From Octopus sinensis (lineage: Eukaryota), in the NCBI RefSeq assembly GCF_006345805.1, contig NC_043001.1:132494001-132558000 (forward strand): a stretch of DNA of 64,000 bases. Direction: 5' to 3'. The notes under the pieces were generated by a model. It was not told where the DNA came from, made no database searches, and was given only the letters and a program-made list of their open reading frames with translations. Positions 1,966 to 58,434 of the stretch are shown in pieces. Position numbers and translations under genes: made by a program. Position 1 is the stretch's first letter; every line of letters starts with the position of its first letter.

Positions 1966-4637
1966 CATATGTTCTGTGATGCATGTAACCTTTTAATCTG
2001 CAACACTAACTTCAGGAAGCCAGACAGCCACCTGATAACCTATCAATCAGATGACTCTGCTACCCAGATTGATTTCATCCTCACCAGACAGTGGGATGCA
2101 GGGCTGCTCTTAAATGCAAAGACCCTCCCAGGTGAAGAATGTACCCCCCAGCATAGACTAATCATTAGTGACTTTAGACTTGAGGCCAGAAGGATGCCAA
2201 GAAGCAGACCAATCCAGAAAAGATGGATTTGGATGCTAAAGAACCCTTCACATGGTCAGAGATTTAGGGACGTCCTCAACAATAATTTGATGAGAAGGAG
2301 GAGGAGCTACAGACCTCAGACACAGAAGGTAGCTGGAAATTCCTACGGGACAGCTTACTGAGTGCCACAGACCAAGTCTGCAGATGGTACAAAGCCCCTT
2401 CCAGACCTAGAGTAACGTCGTGGTGGAATAATACAGTAGACAAAGCCATTAGAGTAAAGAAACAGGCCTGGAAAGCCTGGAAGTGTGGGGGTAGCAGGAA
2501 ACTGTACCAGATAGCCAGAAAGGAGGCTGGGCAACAGGTATATAAGGCCAAGGGTGAAGCAGAAAAGAAGAAGTTTGCAACATGAGTACCAAAGAACTGA
2601 AGTATTTCGGATTGCAAGACAATGTGTGAGAGAAAATTGTGATGTCACAGGAGAGAAATGTGTCCGCATGGATGATGATGCACTTGATTTTAATGATTCA
2701 GAAAAGAAAGAGGCTTGGTGAAGCCATTATGAAAATAATTAAGGATATGAAGCCAGGAAAAGCGCTCCAGCCCATAAGGAAACATTGCCGAGATGCTTAA
2801 AACATCTGGTGGTGTGGCCTATGGCCTAGTCACCCGTATTGTAAACCAGATAGTTCATGATGAAGTCATACCCAATGTCTGGCATAGCAGCACCATAGTC
2901 AACTGCCAGAAGGGTAAAGGTGATGCTTTAAACAGAAATAGCTACAGGGGTATCAAACTGCTGGATCAGGTGATGAAGGTCACGGAGAGGGTCATAGCCC
3001 AACTAATTAAAGAGAGAGTCTGCTTAGATGAGATGCAGTTTCGTTTATGCAAGGTAGAAGCACCACTGATGCTATATTCCTGGTACAACAACTACAGGAG
3101 AAAAACCTAGCCAAAGATAAACCCCTATACTTGGCTTTTGTGGACTTGGAGAAAGCCTTTGACAGGGTACCCTGATCCCTTATCTGGTTGGGGATGTAGA
3201 AACTGGGGATTGACAAATGGTTAATAAGGGCTGTACAGGCCGTATACAGTGATGCCGTTAGTAAAGTTAGGGTTGGTAATGAGTATAGTGAAGAATTCTG
3301 GGTAGAAGTAGGGGTCCACCAAGGATCAGCCCTCAGCCCCCTCTTATTCATCATAGTCCTCCAGGCAATAACAGAGGAATTGAAGACAGGTTGCCCCTGG
3401 GAGCTCTAGGAGAATCACTACCAGAACTAGAGAAGAAATTTCAGGTGTGGAAGCAAGTTTAAAATCGAAGGGCCTTAGAGTCAATGTTGCAAAGACCAAA
3501 GTTCTAGTAAGTATGGTGAACACATCACACACCCCTTCAGGTAGGTGGCGCTGCTCAATCTGTAGAAAAGGCATAGGTAGAAACTCCATAAGATGTACCC
3601 AGTGTAAGCTATAGGCAAAGGAAGATTAACCAGGAAGATAGCTTTCATTTGCGGCAGATGCACAGGGGCAATAAACACCACAGATGCTCAGAAAACAGAT
3701 TCCATCACATGCCAGGGGGAGAAACTAGAAGTAGTTGATAGCTTTCACTACCTAGGTGATCAAGTCTGTAGTGGGGGGTTGGTTGCTCAGAGAGTGTTAC
3801 CACTAGAATAAGAATAGCCTGGGCAAAGTTCAGAAAGCTTCTACCCCTACTGGTGACTAAGGGCCTCTCGCTTAGAGTAAAAGGTAGATTGTATGATGCA
3901 TGTGTGCGAACTGTCATGCTTCACGGCAGTGAAACATAGGGTGCAACTGCTGAAGAATGTGTAGGCTCGAAAGAAATGTAGCTAGCATGATCTGCCAGAT
4001 GTGTAATGTCAGTGTGCACACACGACAGAGTGTAAGCACCCTGAGAGAAATGTTGGAGATAAGAAGCGTTGGATGTGGCGTGCAAGAGAATCATTTGTGT
4101 TGGTATGGTCATGTACTATGGATGGATGAGGAGGGCTGTATAAAGAAGTGCCACTCCCAATCAGTGGAAGGAATCCCGTGTAGAGAGTAGACCCAGGAAT
4201 AAATGGGATGAGGTGGTGAAGCATGACCTTCGAATGTTGGGACTCACAGAGGCAATGACAAAAGACAGAGTCCTCTGGACATATGCAGTGACTGAGAAGA
4301 GCCGGCAAATAAAGTGAGTTCACAGCTGTAACCTACACCAGTGTGGCATGACCAGCCCACTCAAAAGTACCTTAGATCATAGGGCAACATGCCATGCATG
4401 AGAAGACCAACTGAGTCAAGTACATCAAAATCTAATGGAAATTGTAGTTGTGATCTCCATGCCAGTGACACGTAAAAAGCTCCCACTACACTCACGGAGT
4501 GGTTGGCATTAGGAAGGGCATATAGCTGTAGGAACACAGCACTGCCAGATCAGACGGGAGCCTGGTGCAGCCTCCTGGCTTCCCAGACCCCAGTCGAATC
4601 ATCCAACCCATGCCAGCATGGAAAACGGACGTTAAAC

Positions 4638-19174: not shown

Positions 19175-20745
19175 GCTATAGAGGAAATACCTGGCACCCT
19201 TCTGCATTCTATGATGGTAGATGAGAGTTGCTACAAAGATGATAAAGATGCTGGTGACAGAGTGCTAGGATGTACCTTCAAGATACAAGAAGATGAATAA
19301 AAAGGAGAATATAGTCAGTGGATTAGCAGGAAAGGAAAGGGTTTGTCCAGTGTTTTTATTTCTAATACATTTAAAGTATATGATTTTTGTGCAGTTATAT
19401 TTCATTATCTCATCTTTTATTTGAGGAGATATCTTGACTGACATAATTCAAAATTATGAAAGGTTTTGATGAAAGGAATCTCACTGCAGATTACACCTAA
19501 TACACAAGATTATAGACAGACACATAATGTAAAACTATATTATAGATTTGATATTTAATTAATACATACATCCCACTCATCTGAAATGCACATGCAATAT
19601 TGTAGAAACACATACACAAACTCATATAAATGATTATTCTTGGTCATCAATAAAAAATTTGTATTCCAAAGTGACATCAAAAAAAAAAAAAAACCCAAGA
19701 TGATTACCATCTATAAAATTAGAAAATTTCCTAATTTTTTTTCTAATTTAGCGGATCCAAAAGAGAGAATCTGTTAAATTGTTAAATGCTATTTAAGCAA
19801 TTACTAATTACCAATTGCTATGAGTCATCCTCTAAAGATTTCATGGAAGATTTCCTACTACTATGACTAAGCAAGTTTAGATTGGTCTGGTGCCGTAGTC
19901 AAGCTTGCAAGCTCTAGCTTTGAACACCTTACGTAAGTTGCATAGAAGCACATTGACAAAGTTATAACCAGTTAGCTGATGTCATTGTATTTGGTTAATG
20001 AACTGTAATATCATCTCTCTCACTTTTCATAATAATCTCCCAAGGATCTTCTCCAGTTCCTTTCATTTTCAACCATACACATCTCATTTTAGAATTATTT
20101 CTCTAGCCAACAAAGACCAACTAATGGAAATTTAAAATAAAAAAGCAAAACACCAGCATTAACACCCCATTTAAATCATTTCTATTATGCTATTACCACC
20201 TAAACAATATTATGTAACAAGAAATGGTTACTTAAAATTGAGGCATGAGATGTTCCTTTGTTTTATTTCTAAAAGAATATAATAAAAAAAGAATTGTGAG
20301 AAATAGACACTCTTTACAAATACAGCATGAGTAAAATAGTTGTTCTTTCTCTTTACAACTGTATATTTATATATTTATATATATTTTGATAATTATACGA
20401 AGTCAAATATCTTTGTAAAAGTTTAATGACAGGTAGTATATAGGTAGTTATTTAGCTATTTCTCTTAATACCAGTTAACAGTAAAATGAAGATGTATAAG
20501 TTGTAATAGTTATTTAGCCAAGGTTCTATCCAATTAGACACTCATAAAACCAACAGTTTTCCAGCTTTGCCCATCCAATTTTAGAGGAAACATTTATCCC
20601 CACTTAAATGTGGCTGTTCTGTGAGAACAAACTATACTGTGGTAGATATCATGAGAGAAACTCTTATTTTGGCTTTAGGTGTAAAATGAACTCTTGTTTA
20701 TGTGGCTAGTAGAGAGCTAGATCCCTTCCACCTCCAGTACCAAGA

Positions 20746-20792
20746 CCACCAGATCACGTGATTTCGACCTTCCTTTGTTTTGTCAATGATGG
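20746..20792 (-). ncRNA. Minimal type I hammerhead (U3:A8 variant), stem II damaged
   Basis: CCAUCA-UUGACAA-AACA AAGGAA GGUC-GAAA-UCACGUGA-UC/UGGUGG; palindromic stem III. Confidence 0.6.
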
Positions 20793-21101
20793 ACGCTTGA
20801 CCACTAGAGATAGCAGTGACTCATACACCCATCAATGATATATAGAAAAAATAGTGCTAGAACAGTGGCTGGTATTACAATTAACCAGTGAGCTTGTTAA
20901 AAAATATATATTAGCAACAGAGGCAGTATATATACTGAGATGTAATATTTATCCCCACTTAAACATGGATGTTCTGTTAGAACAAACTATACTGTGGTAG
21001 ATACCATGAGAGAAACTCTCATATTGGCTTTTGGTGCAAAATGCACTCTTATTTATATTGCTAGTGGGGAGATAAGTCTCCAACACTTCCAGCACCGAGA
21101 T

Positions 21102-21147
21102 CACCAGATCATGTGATTTCGACCTGCCTTGGTCTTGTCAATGATGG
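21102..21147 (-). ncRNA. Minimal type I hammerhead (U3:A8 variant)
   Basis: CAUCA-UUGACAA-GACC AAGGCA GGUC-GAAA-UCACAUGA-UC/UGGUG; all three stems form and the cleavage triplet is AUC. Confidence 0.75.
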
Positions 21148-21774
21148 ATGCTTGACTGCTAGAAAGAGTAGATATTCTATTTTAATTCAAATGGCATGAA
21201 CCTGACTACATTATCACTGGGCTCTTTTCTTTTTTAAGATGTAATGTAAAGGCAGTATGGTTGTTATTTGTAACTGGTGCAGTAATTATATAGAGATTCC
21301 TTCATTCTATTAGGGGGCAATATATTTTCAGCTAAATGTATTGAAACAAGTGTTAGTACTACTATTATGCTCCTTAGTTAAATGCTGAGCAATCTACCTA
21401 TAAGTGATGGGATTTGAACTTAGAAATCAGTTCAGCATGTTAATCCACATGAATTATTTACTGTTATTTTCAAATAAGAAAAATGAGATAAAAGAACAAA
21501 CTTAAAACTTGAAAAGTAAAATTAGAAAACAAATTCAGCATTTACCAGTTAAGATCTACACACCTTTCTATTGGTTATCTTAAACAAAGATAATCAGAAA
21601 AATGTGTGTAACTAAAATGTGGGTAACACTGTAGAGCAAGTAACACAGTTTCAATTCCTAGAAGTAGATTTACTTCACTTAAACAGTTACTGTTCTTGAG
21701 AAAGGTATGACTGATAGAAAATTTCATGCGTGTTACATTGAGGAAACCAATAATCATAACTACAATATAATGAA

Positions 21775-22156
21775 CTAGCAGTATCGCCCGGCGTTGCTCG
21801 GGTTTGTAAGGGAAATAACTATATAAGCATTTTTAGAGAGTTATAGCCAAAAAATAACAAAAAATGCATTAAAAATGGAAAAAAAATGATGGTAATTTTT
21901 TTTTAAATCGTAGACATTTTTAGAGAGTTACTTCCCTTATATGATAGCGAAAAATGCATTAAAATGGAAAAAATGATTTAAATTTTTTTTTAAATCGTAG
22001 ACTCATCGTAGACGCGCGCTAATACCCAGAAGGGCTCGATATGAATCATGACTATAAGATACCCGGTTTTGGTTAAACTGCACCGCAAAATGTGGGAGTA
22101 GTTAGGAATCTAAATCGTAGGAGACAGACACACAACTTCTCTTTTATATATAAAGA
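21775..22156 (-). mobile_element. Non-autonomous Helitron
   Basis: Minus strand 5' TCTTTATATATAAAAG ... 3' hairpin CCCGAGCAACGCCGGG then CTAG; inserted between A and T with no TSD. Confidence 0.88.
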
Positions 22157-22885
22157 TATTGTAAAGTATGTTTGGCAAAATAAATATTGCTTTCAGTTCA
22201 AAGTTAAAAATACAAAATGAATCCGGAGAAGATTTGAACTCAAGATACAAAGAAAGAGACAAAACTAATAACAGCTCAGCAAATTTCTACCAATCAAGAT
22301 GCTCACTTCATAACTATGTGGCTTAGGGTATAATTCTACTGTGCGGCACATCAAATAGCTATCTTCTGTCATTGCCTCAAGTAATCTGATACCTTGTGAG
22401 CACAATTTGGGAGACAGAGACTGTACAGAAGCCTGTTGAATATGCTTTACTTGCTTCATGATTGAATACTAGAAAATTTAATTGACAACAGATATATAAG
22501 TGTTCATCATGTATTGACTATTAAAAAATAGTCAAATATTGGGGCATATAAGCCCTCAAGAGAAAAAAGATGGGTATTAATACATGTGGGAAATGAACCT
22601 ACACCTCTTATTTTCCCATTTATATATCTATCTGTAGGGGTACAGTATTAAAGGAGGTGGCTTTGTGCCAGTTGTTGAAAGGCCAAAGTATGATAGAGTG
22701 ACATTGAAGCCTGATGTAACCCTCTGATGTGTCAAATCCTGTTGAACCATCTAACCAATGGTAGCATCATGTATATATGTATGTATGTATGTATATATGT
22801 ATGTATGTATGTATGTATGCATGTATGTATGTATGTATGTGTGTTTGTATGTATGTATGTATGTATGTATGTATGTATGTATGTA

Positions 22886-25576: not shown

Positions 25577-26172
25577 GTAATAGTTATCTCCACATAAAAG
25601 TGGATTTTGTGTTTAAACATAGAATACTGCAATAGTTACCAAGAGAGATTCTCATTTGAACTTGTGGAGCATAGAAGTACTCTTTTTTATTGCTAGTGGA
25701 AGATAATCAATCACCACTGTTGCTGCTGGGACTACCAGACAATGTAATTTTGACCTTCCTTGGCCATGCCAATTATAGATGCCTGAAAGCTGAAGATGGC
25801 GGCAATTCCTCCATCAGCAATATATATATACATAGAATGTCAGTGCTTACTGGTGTCACAAATAACCAGTGGGCTTGTTAAGAAATAATTAATAGTGACA
25901 GAAAGAGTATTAATACCAAAAGGTAATAGTTGTCCCCACATAAAAGTGGGTGTTGTGATAGCACACCGAATACTGATGTAATCACCATGAGGGAGCCTCT
26001 CATATGGATATGGACTTGTGGTGCATATAAACACTCTTGTTTATCACTAGCAGAAGATAATCAACTGCTATCATCACTACCAAGACTACTAGATCCCATG
26101 ATTTTAGCATTCCTTAGACCTTGTCAATGGTAGATGCCCAAAAGCTGCAGATAGCAGCAATTTCCTTGCCAA
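25577..26172 (-). mobile_element. Diverged second ~350-bp partial dimer of the 20.6-kb hammerhead family
   Basis: GTAATAGTTRTCYCCACATAAAAGTGG at 25577 and 25923; homologous to 20592-21165; degenerate HHR cores at 25732-25778 and 26086-26133. Confidence 0.7.
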
Positions 26173-27222: not shown

Positions 27223-28867
27223 ACATATAAACATATATCTTTCTTGTGTATATATATAAACATATATCTTTCTTGTGTATATATATAAACATATATCTTT
27301 CTTGTGAATATATATAAACATATATCTTTCTTGTGTATATATAAACATATATCTTTCTTGTGTATATATAAACATATATATTTCTTGTGTATATATAAAC
27401 ATATATCTTTCTTGTGTATATATATAAACATATATCTTTCTTGTGTATATATATAAACATATATCTTTCTTGTGTATATATATAAACATATATCTTTCTT
27501 GTGTATATATAAACATATATCTTTCTTGTGAATATATATAACATATATCTTTCTTGTGTATATAAACATATATCTTTCTTGTGTATATATAAACATATAT
27601 CTTTCTTGTGATATATATAAACATATATCTTTCTTGTGTATATATAAACATATCTTTCTTGTGTATATAAACATATATTTTCTTGTGTATATATATAAAC
27701 ATATATCTTTCTTGTGTATATATAAACATATATATCTTTCTTGTGTATATAAAACATATATCTTTCTTGGTATATATAAACATATATCTTTCTTGTGTTA
27801 TATAAACATATATCTTTCTTGTGAATATATATAAACATACATCTTTCTTGTGTATATATAACATATATCTTTCTTGTGTATATAAACATATATCTTTCTT
27901 GTGTATATATAAACATATATCTTTCTTGTGAATATATATAAACATACATCTTTCTTGTGTATATATAAAATATATCTTTCTTGTGTATATATAAACATAT
28001 ATCTTTCTTGTGTATATATAAACATATATCTTTCTTGTGTATATATAAACAATATATCTTTCTTTCTTGTGTATAATATATAAACATATATCTTTCTTGT
28101 GTTATATAAACATATATCTTTCTTGTGTATATATAAACATATATCTTTCTTGTGTATATATATAAACATATATCTTTCTTGTGTATATATAAACATATAT
28201 CTTTCTTGTGTATATATATAAACATATATCTTTCTTGTGTATATATAAACATAAGTCTTTCTTGTGTATATATAAACATATATCTTTCTTGTGTATATAT
28301 AAACATATATCTTTCTTGTGTATATATAAACATATATCTTTCTTGTGTATATATAAACATATATCTTTCTTGTGTATATATAAACATATATCTTTCTTGT
28401 GTATATATAAACATATATCTTTCTTGTGTATATATAAACATATATCTTTCTTGTGTATATATATAAACATATATCTTTCTTGTGTATATATAAACATATA
28501 TCTTTCTTGTGTATATATAAACATATATCTTTCTTGTGAATATATATAAACATATATCTTTCTTGTGTATATATAAACATATATCTTTCTTGTGTATATA
28601 TAAACATATATCTTTCTTGTGTATATATAAACATATATCTTTCTTGTGTATATATAAACATATATCTTTCTTGTGTATATATAAATATATATCTTTCATG
28701 TGTATATATAAACATATATCTTTCTTGTGTATATATAAACATATATCTTTCATGTGTATATATAAACATATATCTTTCTTGTGTATATATAAACATATAT
28801 CTTTCATGTGTATATATAAACATATATCTTTCTTGTGTATATATAAACATATGTCTTTCTTGTGTAT
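27223..28867. repeat. 27-bp minisatellite (TATATATAAACATATATCTTTCTTGTG)n, roughly 60 copies
   Basis: Direct tandem repetition, with unit-length variation in the TA run. Confidence 0.97.
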
Positions 28868-30006: not shown

Positions 30007-30373
30007 CACAATTCGTACTACATCCCAAACAACAGAGGCCATCACCCTCCCTGCTGAGGAAACAACCTTGGCCTTCTTTGGAGCAGGTGAAAAGGAGTTT
30101 TCATTGCACAGATTGTCTCTTTGTCTCTTGGTCAATATGATCAGCTAAATACTCACTTTGGATGAGGAAATGCTCAAGAAAACCAGTTGGATCTGTCTCA
30201 GACAATGATCAGATTTTCTGTGATGTGATCAGCCAGGTGCACATTTGATCAGGTGTCAGAAGATATGGCACCCAACAAGCAGAAGCCTTCATCGTGCCAA
30301 GCTCAATGTGCACAATATTCCCAACTCTCTCGCAGGATATACTAATAGCACCAGCTATTTGATTTAGAGTCAA

Positions 30374-30775
30374 CTAGCAGTATCGCCCGGCGTTGCTCGG
30401 GTTTCTAAGGGAAATAACTATATAAGCATTTTTAGAGATGTAAAGTATAATAGCCATCTCAATATGGCTAACCACAAAGGGGGGGGGGAGGGTGTTACTA
30501 TAGCTTTTTACGTTCTGAGATTTAATAATAAATTTTTAGAGAGTTACTTCCCTTATATATGCCAAAAATGCATTAAAAATGGGAAAAAATGATGGTAAAT
30601 TTTTTTTAAATCGTAGACTCATCGTAGACGTGCACTAATACCCAGAAGGGCTCGATATTAATCACGACAATAAGATACCCGGTTTTTGTTAAACTGCACC
30701 GCAAAATGTTGGAGTAGTTAGGAATCTAAATCGTAGGAGACAGACAGCACACAACCTCACTTTTATATATAAAGA
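30374..30775 (-). mobile_element. Non-autonomous Helitron (same family as 21775-22156)
   Basis: Same TC...hairpin-CTAG termini; A|T insertion inside the mariner. Confidence 0.88.
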
Positions 30776-33700
30776 TTGCTTGTCACCATGTGGTGATTAC
30801 GATCAATGTCTTCCTCAGTGATGGCCTTTGCATGACGTCCAGATGTCAGGTTATTTTTAAGATTCTCCATTCCCCTCCTAAATTCAGCTGACCACTTTTG
30901 CAATGTTAAACATTCCACCCAAGACCATCCCATCTCCTTTTCAGGCTTGCTGAATTTATTACTATTATATCCAATGCATCCTTTTTTTCTTAAAAGAAGG
31001 TAAGTTTGAAGGACATTTGGCTGTGATTTCTAGCAGGTTAAGTGACCACATAAAGTTTATCATGCTGGTTCAATTTATAATGAATTATTTTGTTGCTGAA
31101 CCTATATTTTGTTCTCAGACCTATAGTCAAACGCATCCCAGTTGTTGGTTAGTCTTAAGTCATCTCAGATGCAGCAGAATTATGATCAAAGATGTTCCAG
31201 TCATGACCATTCAGTTTTTTAAATATTTTTTTGTCACTAGTCCTTCTAGAATTACATTATTCAATACACTCTCCACTTCCTTTTTAAAACTGAGTGTGAA
31301 CAGAGAAAGATTTAGTTATTATTTCTTGTAGGTCAAGTAACCTTATAGAAGCTATCTCACCAGCTCAACTTATTCTTAGTTATTAATAAAGGTTTCAGCT
31401 ATGGATACAGAAGCATATCATAAAGAGAAATATTCAAGAAGGGTTGATAAGTTAAACCATTATGTAATGTTCCAAATGTTTGCAAAAGTTAAATAGTTGT
31501 ATTTAATTATTTTTTATCTTTTATTTTTTATTTTTATTTATCTTTCTTTTTGTGTGGTACAATACACCATTCTTAAATTCTAGCTGACCTAATTAATTTT
31601 AATTTTCCCAAAAAACAAAGCCAGTTTTATTTACGATGTCTATGTCTTAAATTACATATGTCTTTAACTATTCATCTTTTAATTACCTGCAGCAGGCATA
31701 GAAAAGAATACTACATGAAAAATAAACCAATATCTTTAATGGTATTGTTTTAAGGATGAAAGAAAATGTATATCAAACAAATTATGTTCATTTACTTACT
31801 AATTTTTCACAAACTAATTAACAGTGTATTATTCTTATTTCCTATTTGTGCAGAACTAACAACTTTTTACTTTATTTCAAAAGATACATCGAACTTTTCT
31901 AAAACTTTTCAAATTTTATTCCCTTCAAGCCATAAAATGAAAATATACTGCAAAAAGAAAAAAAAACATATCTTTGTCCTATATTTCAATCAAACTACAT
32001 TCAAAAGGATAATTAGTTGAGTAAATATGACATCATTTACAGTCAAAAATGAACAAAATAACCCAAGAAATTCCAATACAAATCATCACAGACATTTTAA
32101 TTTTATTATATTTTGTTTATGTGAGTAATGATAAGACCTATAACATGTACTAGGTAAGGTAAGAAAAATATCAAGATAGAAAAAGATACACATGCACAAG
32201 CAGCCATACATATATGTATTTGCAATATTTTGTTTAGATCTGATGAATTTTTATAATCATGCTTTTGATAAGAGTGTACATAATGTTTACATTGAAAATA
32301 AACTCAAATCTGTCTTTCTGAACAATGATATACTAACGAAACCCAACCAAGTTTCTATTACAAATTCAAATAAGAAGCAAAAAAATTTTTATAAATTATT
32401 ATTCGTATTATATTCCACTTGGGTTTCATTTCATGATTTCAGCATTAAATTTTAATGAAAACTATTTTTTTTAAAAAAAAGCAAAAGTTTACTTTATTAA
32501 AAAAAAAATTATACTAGTAGTAAAAAGATGATAGTAGTTATGTAGTGAAAATAAAGGATAGGGAGTGTCAAACAGGACCTCACTGAGAGTAACATTTCCC
32601 AAAAGGAATTAAATGCAAAAGAAGTGAGTCCAGCTAATAATTAGCCATAGCAGAAGCTATGTGTCATCATCAAAGGCTGAATTTCAGTTAGCAAATGTCA
32701 GCACCCCTTTTGTATAGTTTTCATGTGTGACATCTGTACACTTGTAATTATCAACTGCACCAATATGGTCATAAAAACTACTAAGCCTCAACTAGCCACT
32801 AATAGTAATTTCTGCGTTATTTGATAAAAAAAAATCTTTTTTCAAAGGATTGATTCACAATGTTTCAATTAAGTTAAATTCTGACGTTTACTATGCTGGG
32901 GCAATTTATGCTTTTCTCTCTCAACTTTTCCCCACCTTTCTCTCACTTTTCTCTCTCTTTCTAGGCCACCCTTTTACTCTCAGCTTTGTACTCCCTCTTA
33001 CAAAGCATACAATTAACAATGTTAATATTGTAATATCTTCTTTTCACTCTTTCTCTATTTTTTTTTTATCTGCTGCTATCCTTTATTAGTGAAGCTTACT
33101 AAATTCTCTTCTGATTTCACTTAGCTATCAGTGTCTGCTGGTAATTCTGATATAATACCCTTGCTTTCTTTCTACATCAAATTTTCTAGGTGTGAAAATG
33201 CAATGATCAGTTATTTACAGATAAAGCATATGACTAATTATAGTCTAATCTAACTAAAAATTGTTGTTCATTTCTCTAGGATCTTATTATGCATTTAATT
33301 CTTCCAGTTTGGCATTGACTTAAATAGTCTCAATAACACCTTTTTTATTTCTTAACTGACAAAACTAGTTAATCATTGACAATTCATGCTACACAATACA
33401 TACTTCCACTATCATAGTTTTAGATTATATATTTCATTTACAAATTCAGTCACATGCTGAAACTGGTCTATTGTCTAGAATGTTGTTGATGATGATGATG
33501 AGTGTATAACTGTATCCCATTTGAACACCACAAAGATACTATTTTCATTTATCATATCTAGGACAAGTGAGTTTGGTGGAACCTATCTCTGTTAGCACTA
33601 CAAGCAAATGAAATACTTGCCAATTATACAGAAATGTTGCTAATTCCAGTGGTAAGCTTTATGGTCATGTGGTCCCATTTCTGTTTTCATTTTGAGCCCT

Positions 33701-56917: not shown

Positions 56918-57221
56918 GAAAGAGGCACATATTCTATGGTTGGTTTCCTTTTTGTTGCCAACCATTACTTTTTTAAAACCAAGCTAATATTTCCACAATG
57001 TCAGGCATGTTTTTCATGGAATACTGGAAATTATCAACACTGCTTGTATGACGGTGATGCTCACTTACAATCAGCCCATGATATGAAGACATGGATACAC
57101 ACAAACATACATATTGATATATGTCCAACCCATGCTAGCATGGAAAACGGACGTTAAACGATGATGATATATAAACTACAGGCTTTTTCCAGTTTCCATC
57201 AAGCAAATCAACTCACAAGCT

Positions 57222-58434
57222 CCGTAGTCAACTGCCACAAAGGTAAAGGTGATGCATTAGATACGAATAATTACAGAGATATCAAGTAATGAAAGTCACA
57301 GAGAGGGTCATAGCCCAACTAGTTAGGGAGAGAGTCAGTTTAGATGAGATGCAGTTTGGGTTTGTACCAGGGAAAAGCATCACTGATGCTATAATTTTGG
57401 TAAGACAGCTGCAGGAGAAATACCTAGCCAAAGATAAACGTATGTACTTGGCTTTCGCTGACATGGAGAAAGCCTTTGACATGGTCCCCCAATCCCTTAT
57501 CTGGTGGTCAATGCGGAAACTAGGGATAGATGAGTGGTTAGTGATAGCTGTACAAGCTATATACAGGGATGCTATCAGTAAGGTAAGTGTTGGCAATGGG
57601 TATAGTGAAGAATTCCAGGTACAGGTAGGGGTCCACCAAGGTTCAATCCTCAGCCCCCTCTTATTCATCATAGTCCTCCAGGCAATAACAGAGGAATCCA
57701 AGACAGAATGCTCCTGGGAGCTTCTGTATGCTGATGACGTTGCTCTAATAGCTGAGTCACAATCAGAACTAGAGGAGAAGCTACAGGTGTAGAAGCAAGG
57801 TCTAGAACTGAAGGGCTTTAGAGTCAATCTAGTTAAAACCAAAGTCTTAATAAGTAGGGAAGCAGAAAAATCACAAATCCCTTCAGGTAGATGGCCCTGC
57901 TCGAACTGTAGAAAAGGCATAGGTAGAAACTCCATAAGATGTACCCAGTGTAAGTTATGGACACATACGAGGTGCAGCAATATCAAAGGAAGGTTATCTG
58001 GGAAGATAGTTTTTGTGTGTGGTAAATGCTCAGGGGCAATAAACACTGAAAATGTGCAGAAAACAGCTTCTGTCATATGCCAGGGGGAAAAACTAGAAGT
58101 AGTTGATAGCTTCCATTACATAGGTGACCAAGTCAGTAGCGGGGCTGGATACTGAGAGTGTAGCTGCTAGAATAAGAATAGATTGGCCAAAGTTCAGAAA
58201 GCTCCTACCTCTACTGGTGACAAAGACCTCTCGCTCAGAGTAAAAGGTAGACTGTATGACACATGTGTGAGAACAGCCATGCTACATGGCAGTGAAACAT
58301 GGGCTGTGACTGCTGAGGACATGTGTGTAAGCTTGCAAGGAATAAAGTTAGTATGCTCCGCTGGATGTGTAATGTTAGTGTGCATATACAACAGAGTATA
58401 TGCATGACAGAGAAAAGTTGGACATAAGATGCAA
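57222..58434 (+). mobile_element. RTE LINE internal fragment (RT domain with PHD-finger insert), pseudogenised
   Basis: ORF 57289-57792: QFGFVPGKS..AFADMEKAFD..GVHQGSILSPLLF..LLYADD; downstream C4HC3 motif and MLHGSETWAVT. Confidence 0.93.

Follow-up and report, generated by a model that had tools for sequence, protein, structure and literature searches.

The window, the whole 64,000-nucleotide stretch of Octopus sinensis DNA that was analysed (contig NC_043001.1, positions 132,494,001 to 132,558,000), carries on its minus strand two independent insertions of a 355-nt repeat family, one from each of two subfamilies designated A and B. Their parts are as follows, in window coordinates.

20583..21171, minus strand: subfamily A insertion (alignment to the family consensus)
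21095..21155, minus strand: hammerhead copy A (motif scan, folding)
21141-21135, minus strand: core UUGACAA of copy A (U3 at 21141, A8 at 21136)
21134-21121, minus strand: stem II of copy A
21120-21117, minus strand: GAAA of copy A
between 21107 and 21106, minus strand: predicted cut of copy A
20752..21106, minus strand: predicted 355-nt monomer between two cuts (folding against shuffles)
20740..20800, minus strand: hammerhead copy B (motif scan, folding)
20786-20780, minus strand: core UUGACAA of copy B, with a perfect AUCACGUGAU palindrome
20752/20751, minus strand: predicted cut site of copy B, likely dead
25577..26162, minus strand: subfamily B partial dimer, 4.4 kb from the subfamily A insertion

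The subfamily A insertion (~89% identical to the family consensus) is 589 nt long, or 1.66 units of the 355-nt repeat, and consists of a 5'-truncated partial tandem of one 355-nt unit plus 228 nt whose 3' terminus is the family's short fixed 3' end, at about unit position 228. An initial annotation of this DNA had correctly recognized a partial dimer, but placed its limits at 20592 and 21165; alignment to the consensus moves these to 20583 and 21171. The sister copy that it described around the AUCACGUGAU palindrome indeed lies at a spacing of exactly 355 nt, with 84% identity over about 226-228 nt (37 differences in 228 nt, 12 of them at CpG columns). No open reading frame of at least 110 aa was found within the insertion, and no target-site duplication is evident around it. 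In the subfamily B insertion (26162-25577) one unit has a UUGACAA core and the other a decayed core.

Elsewhere in the window there is a tandem array of 60 copies of a 27-bp unit, with 93% matches (27225-28867), as well as two related reverse-transcriptase fragments, 78% identical (57218-58429 and 2889-4064), that we take to be RTE-like. A short element is repeated in two pieces (21773-22157 and 30372-30776), and its start resembles a Helitron end.

The annotated minus-strand motif, CAUCA-UUGACAA-GACC(AAGGCA)GGUC-GAAA-UCACAUGA-UC/UGGUG, is present at 21146-21102 and is the only match when both strands of the window are scanned with a strict type I hammerhead pattern. Copy A, like the consensus sequences of both subfamilies, has the type I core (N3-UGA-N-N8-A / GAA, a Watson-Crick 3-8 pair, A15.1-U16.1 and H17). 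Its core and stems are kept, a single CpG of the stem III palindrome having decayed, and it is among the copies (as locus L039) that passed a filter for fully intact hammerheads. Rfam reported no hammerhead at E<=10 on the insertion region, and none among the 150 of 158 window matches listed. The proposal of a hammerhead in each repeat fails at this locus: stem II of copy B reads AACA/GGUC, with G10.1 and C10.4 altered and two of its four pairs gone, and folding yielded no hammerhead for it. When copies A and B are cofolded, copy B's stem is missing and the energy is -22.5 kcal/mol, compared to -33.3 kcal/mol for a pair of consensus hammerheads. The segment 20752..21106 does fold better than its shuffles (z -3.8). 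Because copy B lacks G10.1 and half of stem II, the release of a 355-nt monomer that had been anticipated here is unlikely, and the locus is without the two consecutive complete hammerheads by which Li et al. recognize an active copy. It appears to be a fossil with one dead ribozyme.

The repeat is not a chance motif, since a 24-mer derived from the unit has 273 exact matches in the 2.72-Gb genome, against 0 for a reversed control, and the genome search for loci returned 3238 first-look candidates (40 of which were scored). Copies are dispersed and mostly truncated, and at many loci 355-nt units (GC 44%) stand head to tail as dimers and trimers without an open reading frame. Non-CpG divergence is 10.7% in subfamily A and 14.6% in subfamily B, CpG decay is pervasive, and in a sample that favored intact cores the filter for fully intact hammerheads was passed by 24 of 193 copies in subfamily A and by 0 of 22 in subfamily B. 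The family appears to be extinct; near-identical copies examined as possible signs of recent activity (C3:G8) turned out to be segmental or local duplications. Contigs of the family also occur in sequencing runs under five organism codes. ORF-less tandem units of ~170-400 nt with a type I hammerhead in each, low GC, scattered copies and a highly self-paired monomer are the marks of non-LTR retrozymes, and all are found in this family. The annotation's retrozyme-like family is thus borne out by dispersed, ORF-less 355-nt tandem units with a type I hammerhead in their consensus, and, judging from these sequences, we consider the repeat a real, old, genome-wide retrozyme family whose founders carried a U3:A8 hammerhead.

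That last point requires that UUGACAA not be a decayed CUGACGA, produced by CpG deamination at position 8 and a C to T change at position 3. Such an origin is suggested by the heavy CpG decay of the family and by the presence of some CG and TG at N7N8 in subfamily A. A sample blind to the core was drawn from 90 of the 273 loci, anchored by the downstream 24-mer (171 matches, or 165 after removal of near-duplicates), in which 57 subfamily A copies span the core: 33 are U3:A8, 10 U3-G8, 6 C3-A8, 1 C3:G8 and 7 other, while N7N8 is CA in 35, CG in 6, TG in 6 and TA in 6. At 12 true CpG columns the counts are CG 199, TG 276, CA 290 and TA 38, with G kept in 59%. Compared to this decayed-CpG expectation, A8 is in excess in subfamily B (P 6e-9) as well as in subfamily A (P 7e-8), although the latter value overstates certainty because the CA:TG ratio differs among the 12 columns, up to about 2:1, and is higher at two omitted columns. 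Independent of that P value, B hammerheads matched by their flanks only are U3:A8 in 12 of 12 genomic matches (31 of 41 copies in the aligned B set). Position 3 is U in 46 of the 57 core-blind A copies, whereas T at non-CpG C columns of the hammerhead is found in no more than roughly a tenth of the copies. Even where both other CpGs of the hammerhead survive, U3:A8 is present in 33 of 59 copies (a hand tally that includes about three rows from other families). Some A8 copies do arise by CpG decay; as a general origin of UUGACAA it is very improbable, and it is already refuted for subfamily B and most of A, where the sequences indicate that U3:A8 is the founders' state, as had been supposed.

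The consensus sequences of A and B differ at ~18% of positions 66-237 (~31/172 by hand count), and at five positions in the 47-nt hammerhead, all of them pair-preserving and none in the core. Two pairs changed on both sides, from C-G to U-A in stem I and from A-U to G-C in stem II. In a simulation of five random changes, pair preservation alone has P 0.011, and P 2.8e-4 once the two two-sided pairs are added. A third two-sided change is seen in upper stem I, A-U in 130 of 148 A copies and G-C in 19 of 30 B copies, so that stems I (two changes) and II (one) covary; stem III is invariant between subfamilies and hence without covariation support. These pair-preserving stem changes indicate that the fold was under selection in the founders, with U3:A8 retained. 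Three of 41 B copies (L236, L249, L229) show a possible further A-U to G-C compensation in stem I.

All three stems are present in both consensus sequences, as the initial annotation had it, but its term 'minimal' does not apply. Helix I has 6 bp, an internal loop and then five more pairs, helix II has 4 bp and the palindrome 10 nt, such that the hammerhead is full-length; a tiny or absent helix III, a helix II of 7-8 bp and an extra base 5' of stem II, which characterize minimal hammerheads, are not seen. The minimum free energy cofold of the consensus is a double hammerhead in both subfamilies (-33.3 and -38.7 kcal/mol), and the hammerhead fold of a monomer has an ensemble probability below 0.01 (0.003-0.006). 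These predictions favor the proposed action as dimers through the palindromic stem III. The circular consensus monomer is strongly self-paired (z -6.1 over 60 shuffles), with a long helix that pairs unit positions ~80-112 with 324-355.

At the level of individual copies, the covariation of positions 3 and 8 implied by the annotation is absent from the core-blind A sample (Fisher p=1), and none is found in copies retaining both CpGs (p=0.33) or in subfamily B (p=0.45). Pooled A copies, a sample enriched for U3:A8 and C3 copies, give p=0.013. In a flank-anchored list (100 of 103 rows, scored by hand) 21 are C3:G8, 10 C3-A8, 15 U3-G8, 51 U3:A8 and 3 other, and with duplicates dropped (13, 10, 15 and 50, respectively) covariation has p=0.0045. 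This signal was traced largely to one G8-rich sublineage, recognizable by six positions that lie outside the hammerhead, whose 15 copies comprise 7 C3:G8, 5 U3-G8 and 3 U3:A8. A tree built with the core masked contains a 17-member clade (support 0.95) with the same G8 enrichment. Because B has the main-lineage letters at most of the diagnostic positions in the alignment, the G8 shift would be derived, and we infer that one A sublineage moved toward C3:G8. C3 is found in 7 of the 57 core-blind copies against a T to C background of 3.6% (p=0.004 before correction for multiple columns). RNA editing as a source of G8 was rejected, there being no excess of A>G (191/5121) over T>C (209/5772). Additionally, U4C cores recur at several independent A loci (CCGAUGA in L069, L080, L176, L182 and L210; CCGAUAA in L192), which suggests amplification from a template whose core was impaired. 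Together with the mismatched cores, this recurrence would mean that an intact core was perhaps dispensable in some rounds of copying. A sub-branch with loop II AAACAA is entirely U3:A8 (L033, L045-L047, L049, L199, L266, L274).

A survey of 135 arms from 90 loci provides a record of how copies were made. Their 3' ends cluster at unit positions 220-229 (37 arms) and 260-269 (42 arms), two sites ~38 nt apart, and of 29 back-to-back arm pairs 20 join a short and a long arm, one is long-long and none is short-short. The cut site is crossed by 59 of the 135 arms, with no pile-up of 5' ends there (6 of 135 arms in the bin), from which the template would have been either a ligated circle or an uncut multimer; both fit. 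Derived letters are shared by 12% within a locus and 7.6% between loci (0 at the window locus), and this sharing does not separate the two templates. Partial tandems, an inverted 5' arm and a 30-40 nt tail on one arm together make up the Penelope-type insertion pattern, and elements with intact reverse transcriptase (RT) plus GIY-YIG are present in the same genome. It is likely that the family was spread by a borrowed Penelope-type enzyme. A search for a mobilising partner with shared DNA sequence gave no match among 30 of 149 GIY-YIG loci.

The same genome contains a young autonomous Penelope-type family (L296:1-2480, at G000:C6:82398301-82401564; also L305, L309, L310 and L311) that encodes RT plus GIY-YIG in a 780-aa frame, with a CxxxxCxxC linker as in Neptune. 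The 3' repeat of this family, which in many cases terminates at TA repeats, includes a UUGAUAA U3:A8 hammerhead-like motif with 361 exact flank-anchored matches; among 100 listed, U3 is found in 100 and A8 in 95 (hand tally). DNA similarity between this family and the 355-nt family is not detectable. At L301, L331 and L333 there is another hammerhead-like motif, UUGAAAA, whose stem III is CCGG or CTGG, one copy being inside a GIY-YIG locus, and a U3:A8 hammerhead pattern with a shorter stem III has three matches.

We regard the 355-nt repeat as probably a decayed, ORF-less tandem element with a founder U3:A8 type I hammerhead, predicted cutting as a dimer and likely copying by a borrowed Penelope-type enzyme. 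Under this model two hammerheads of a multimeric transcript would pair by way of AUCACGUGAU, cutting after AUC, and a host ligase would close the 355-nt monomer into a circle. A Penelope reverse transcriptase/endonuclease would then start downstream of the cut site, at a distance of ~165 or 200 nt; copying round through the junction could generate both the partial tandems and the back-to-back arms.

An uncut template would explain just as well why 5' ends do not accumulate at the cut site, and it is possible, if rather unlikely, that the fold was conserved while cutting was rare or nil, with the Penelope enzyme copying uncut multimers and the fold serving for recognition by a protein or as a weak signal for processing. 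Read-through of the cut site by 59 of 135 arms and the mismatched and U4C cores at independent loci are consistent with this, as is the weak activity in vitro of related motifs (available portions of PMC4209133 and 10.64898/2026.07.22.740005). It accounts less well for the other catalytic core letters, unchanged between A and B despite ~18% divergence elsewhere (positions 66-237), for a 3-8 pair that remains Watson-Crick between subfamilies, or for a long helix that would bring the ends of a cut monomer together. Much less probable still is an origin of the copies from the terminal repeats of an autonomous Penelope element, with no ORF-less retrozyme involved. The end pattern is of Penelope type, U3-A8 is known in Penelope terminal repeats (PMC4209133, in the part available), and short Penelope-like protein fragments are found in 3 of 288 family loci. 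However, those three fragments are isolated, fall mid-ORF and lie ~1 kb off or in opposite orientation; head-to-tail 355-nt joins lack an ORF at many loci; and sequences common to 5' flanks abut many different unit positions, resembling unrelated repeats. An ORF with RT plus GIY-YIG between repeats, as in an autonomous Penelope-like element, was not found in the loci examined.

As for the founder U3:A8 hammerhead, it is tempting to speculate that its core pair was in transit: held as U3:A8 in two subfamilies, then moving through U3-G8 toward C3:G8 in the derived sublineage (G8 in 12 and C3:G8 in 7 of 15 copies), with U3:A8 selected repeatedly in hammerheads linked to Penelope elements. The recurrence is suggested by the young autonomous Penelope family, also U3:A8 and in the same genome. 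We consider this doubtful; if true, the swap would tune the cutting rate, letting multi-unit or circular templates survive for copying.

The overall significance of the family is modest. As foreseen, CUGANGA patterns miss most copies; censuses based on them undercount animal retrozymes, and a family with thousands of candidate loci is mostly invisible to them and also to Rfam. One scaffold offers natural U3:A8, U3-G8, C3-A8 and C3:G8 cores, making the cost of the swap assayable, and the footprint of two fixed ends strengthens the case for Penelope enzymes mobilising retrozymes.

No published description of this octopus family or of a U3-A8 retrozyme was found in the portion of the literature available, the supplements of which could list cephalopod entries. 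The U3-A8 swap itself is already published: the available parts of PMC4209133 describe it in ~1,300 Penelope-related motifs of S. mansoni, and those of PMC3088659 in natural hammerheads, with one sentence giving prior in vitro activity, in agreement with its annotation as a natural compensatory variant. The covariation in the latter set is the same as ours; the difference is that here the pair is traced from subfamily to subfamily within a single animal repeat. In the accessible text of PMC4209133, the S. mansoni Cercyon/pLTR Penelope hammerheads share with the 355-nt family a U3-A8 core, a palindromic helix III and a dimer model. They are minimal, however, cut weakly, and have a short helix I (4-5 bp), a long helix II (7-8 bp), an extra base 5' of stem II and little or no helix III, whereas the octopus hammerhead has a helix I of 6+5 bp and a helix II of 4 bp in an ORF-less tandem. 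Penelope insertions, as described in the part of PMC8557442 available, similarly comprise partial tandems, an inverted 5'-truncated arm and a tail of 30-40 bp confined to one end; the 355-nt family differs from them in having no ORF. The closest parallel is with metazoan non-LTR retrozymes, for which the available portions of PMC7229834 and 10.64898/2026.07.22.740005 report ORF-less tandem units of 170-400 nt (350-390 bp in mussels, PMC7229834), each bearing a type I hammerhead, and failure to cut in eight of nine Xenopus dimers (10.64898/2026.07.22.740005). Our family resembles these in unit structure, in its GC of 44%, in a self-paired monomer and in the Penelope elements of the same genome; unlike theirs, its core is U3:A8 rather than C3:G8, and it is old (10.7% and 14.6%), mostly truncated and known from DNA copies. 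It is a fresh example of an element type already known, and not a new kind of system.
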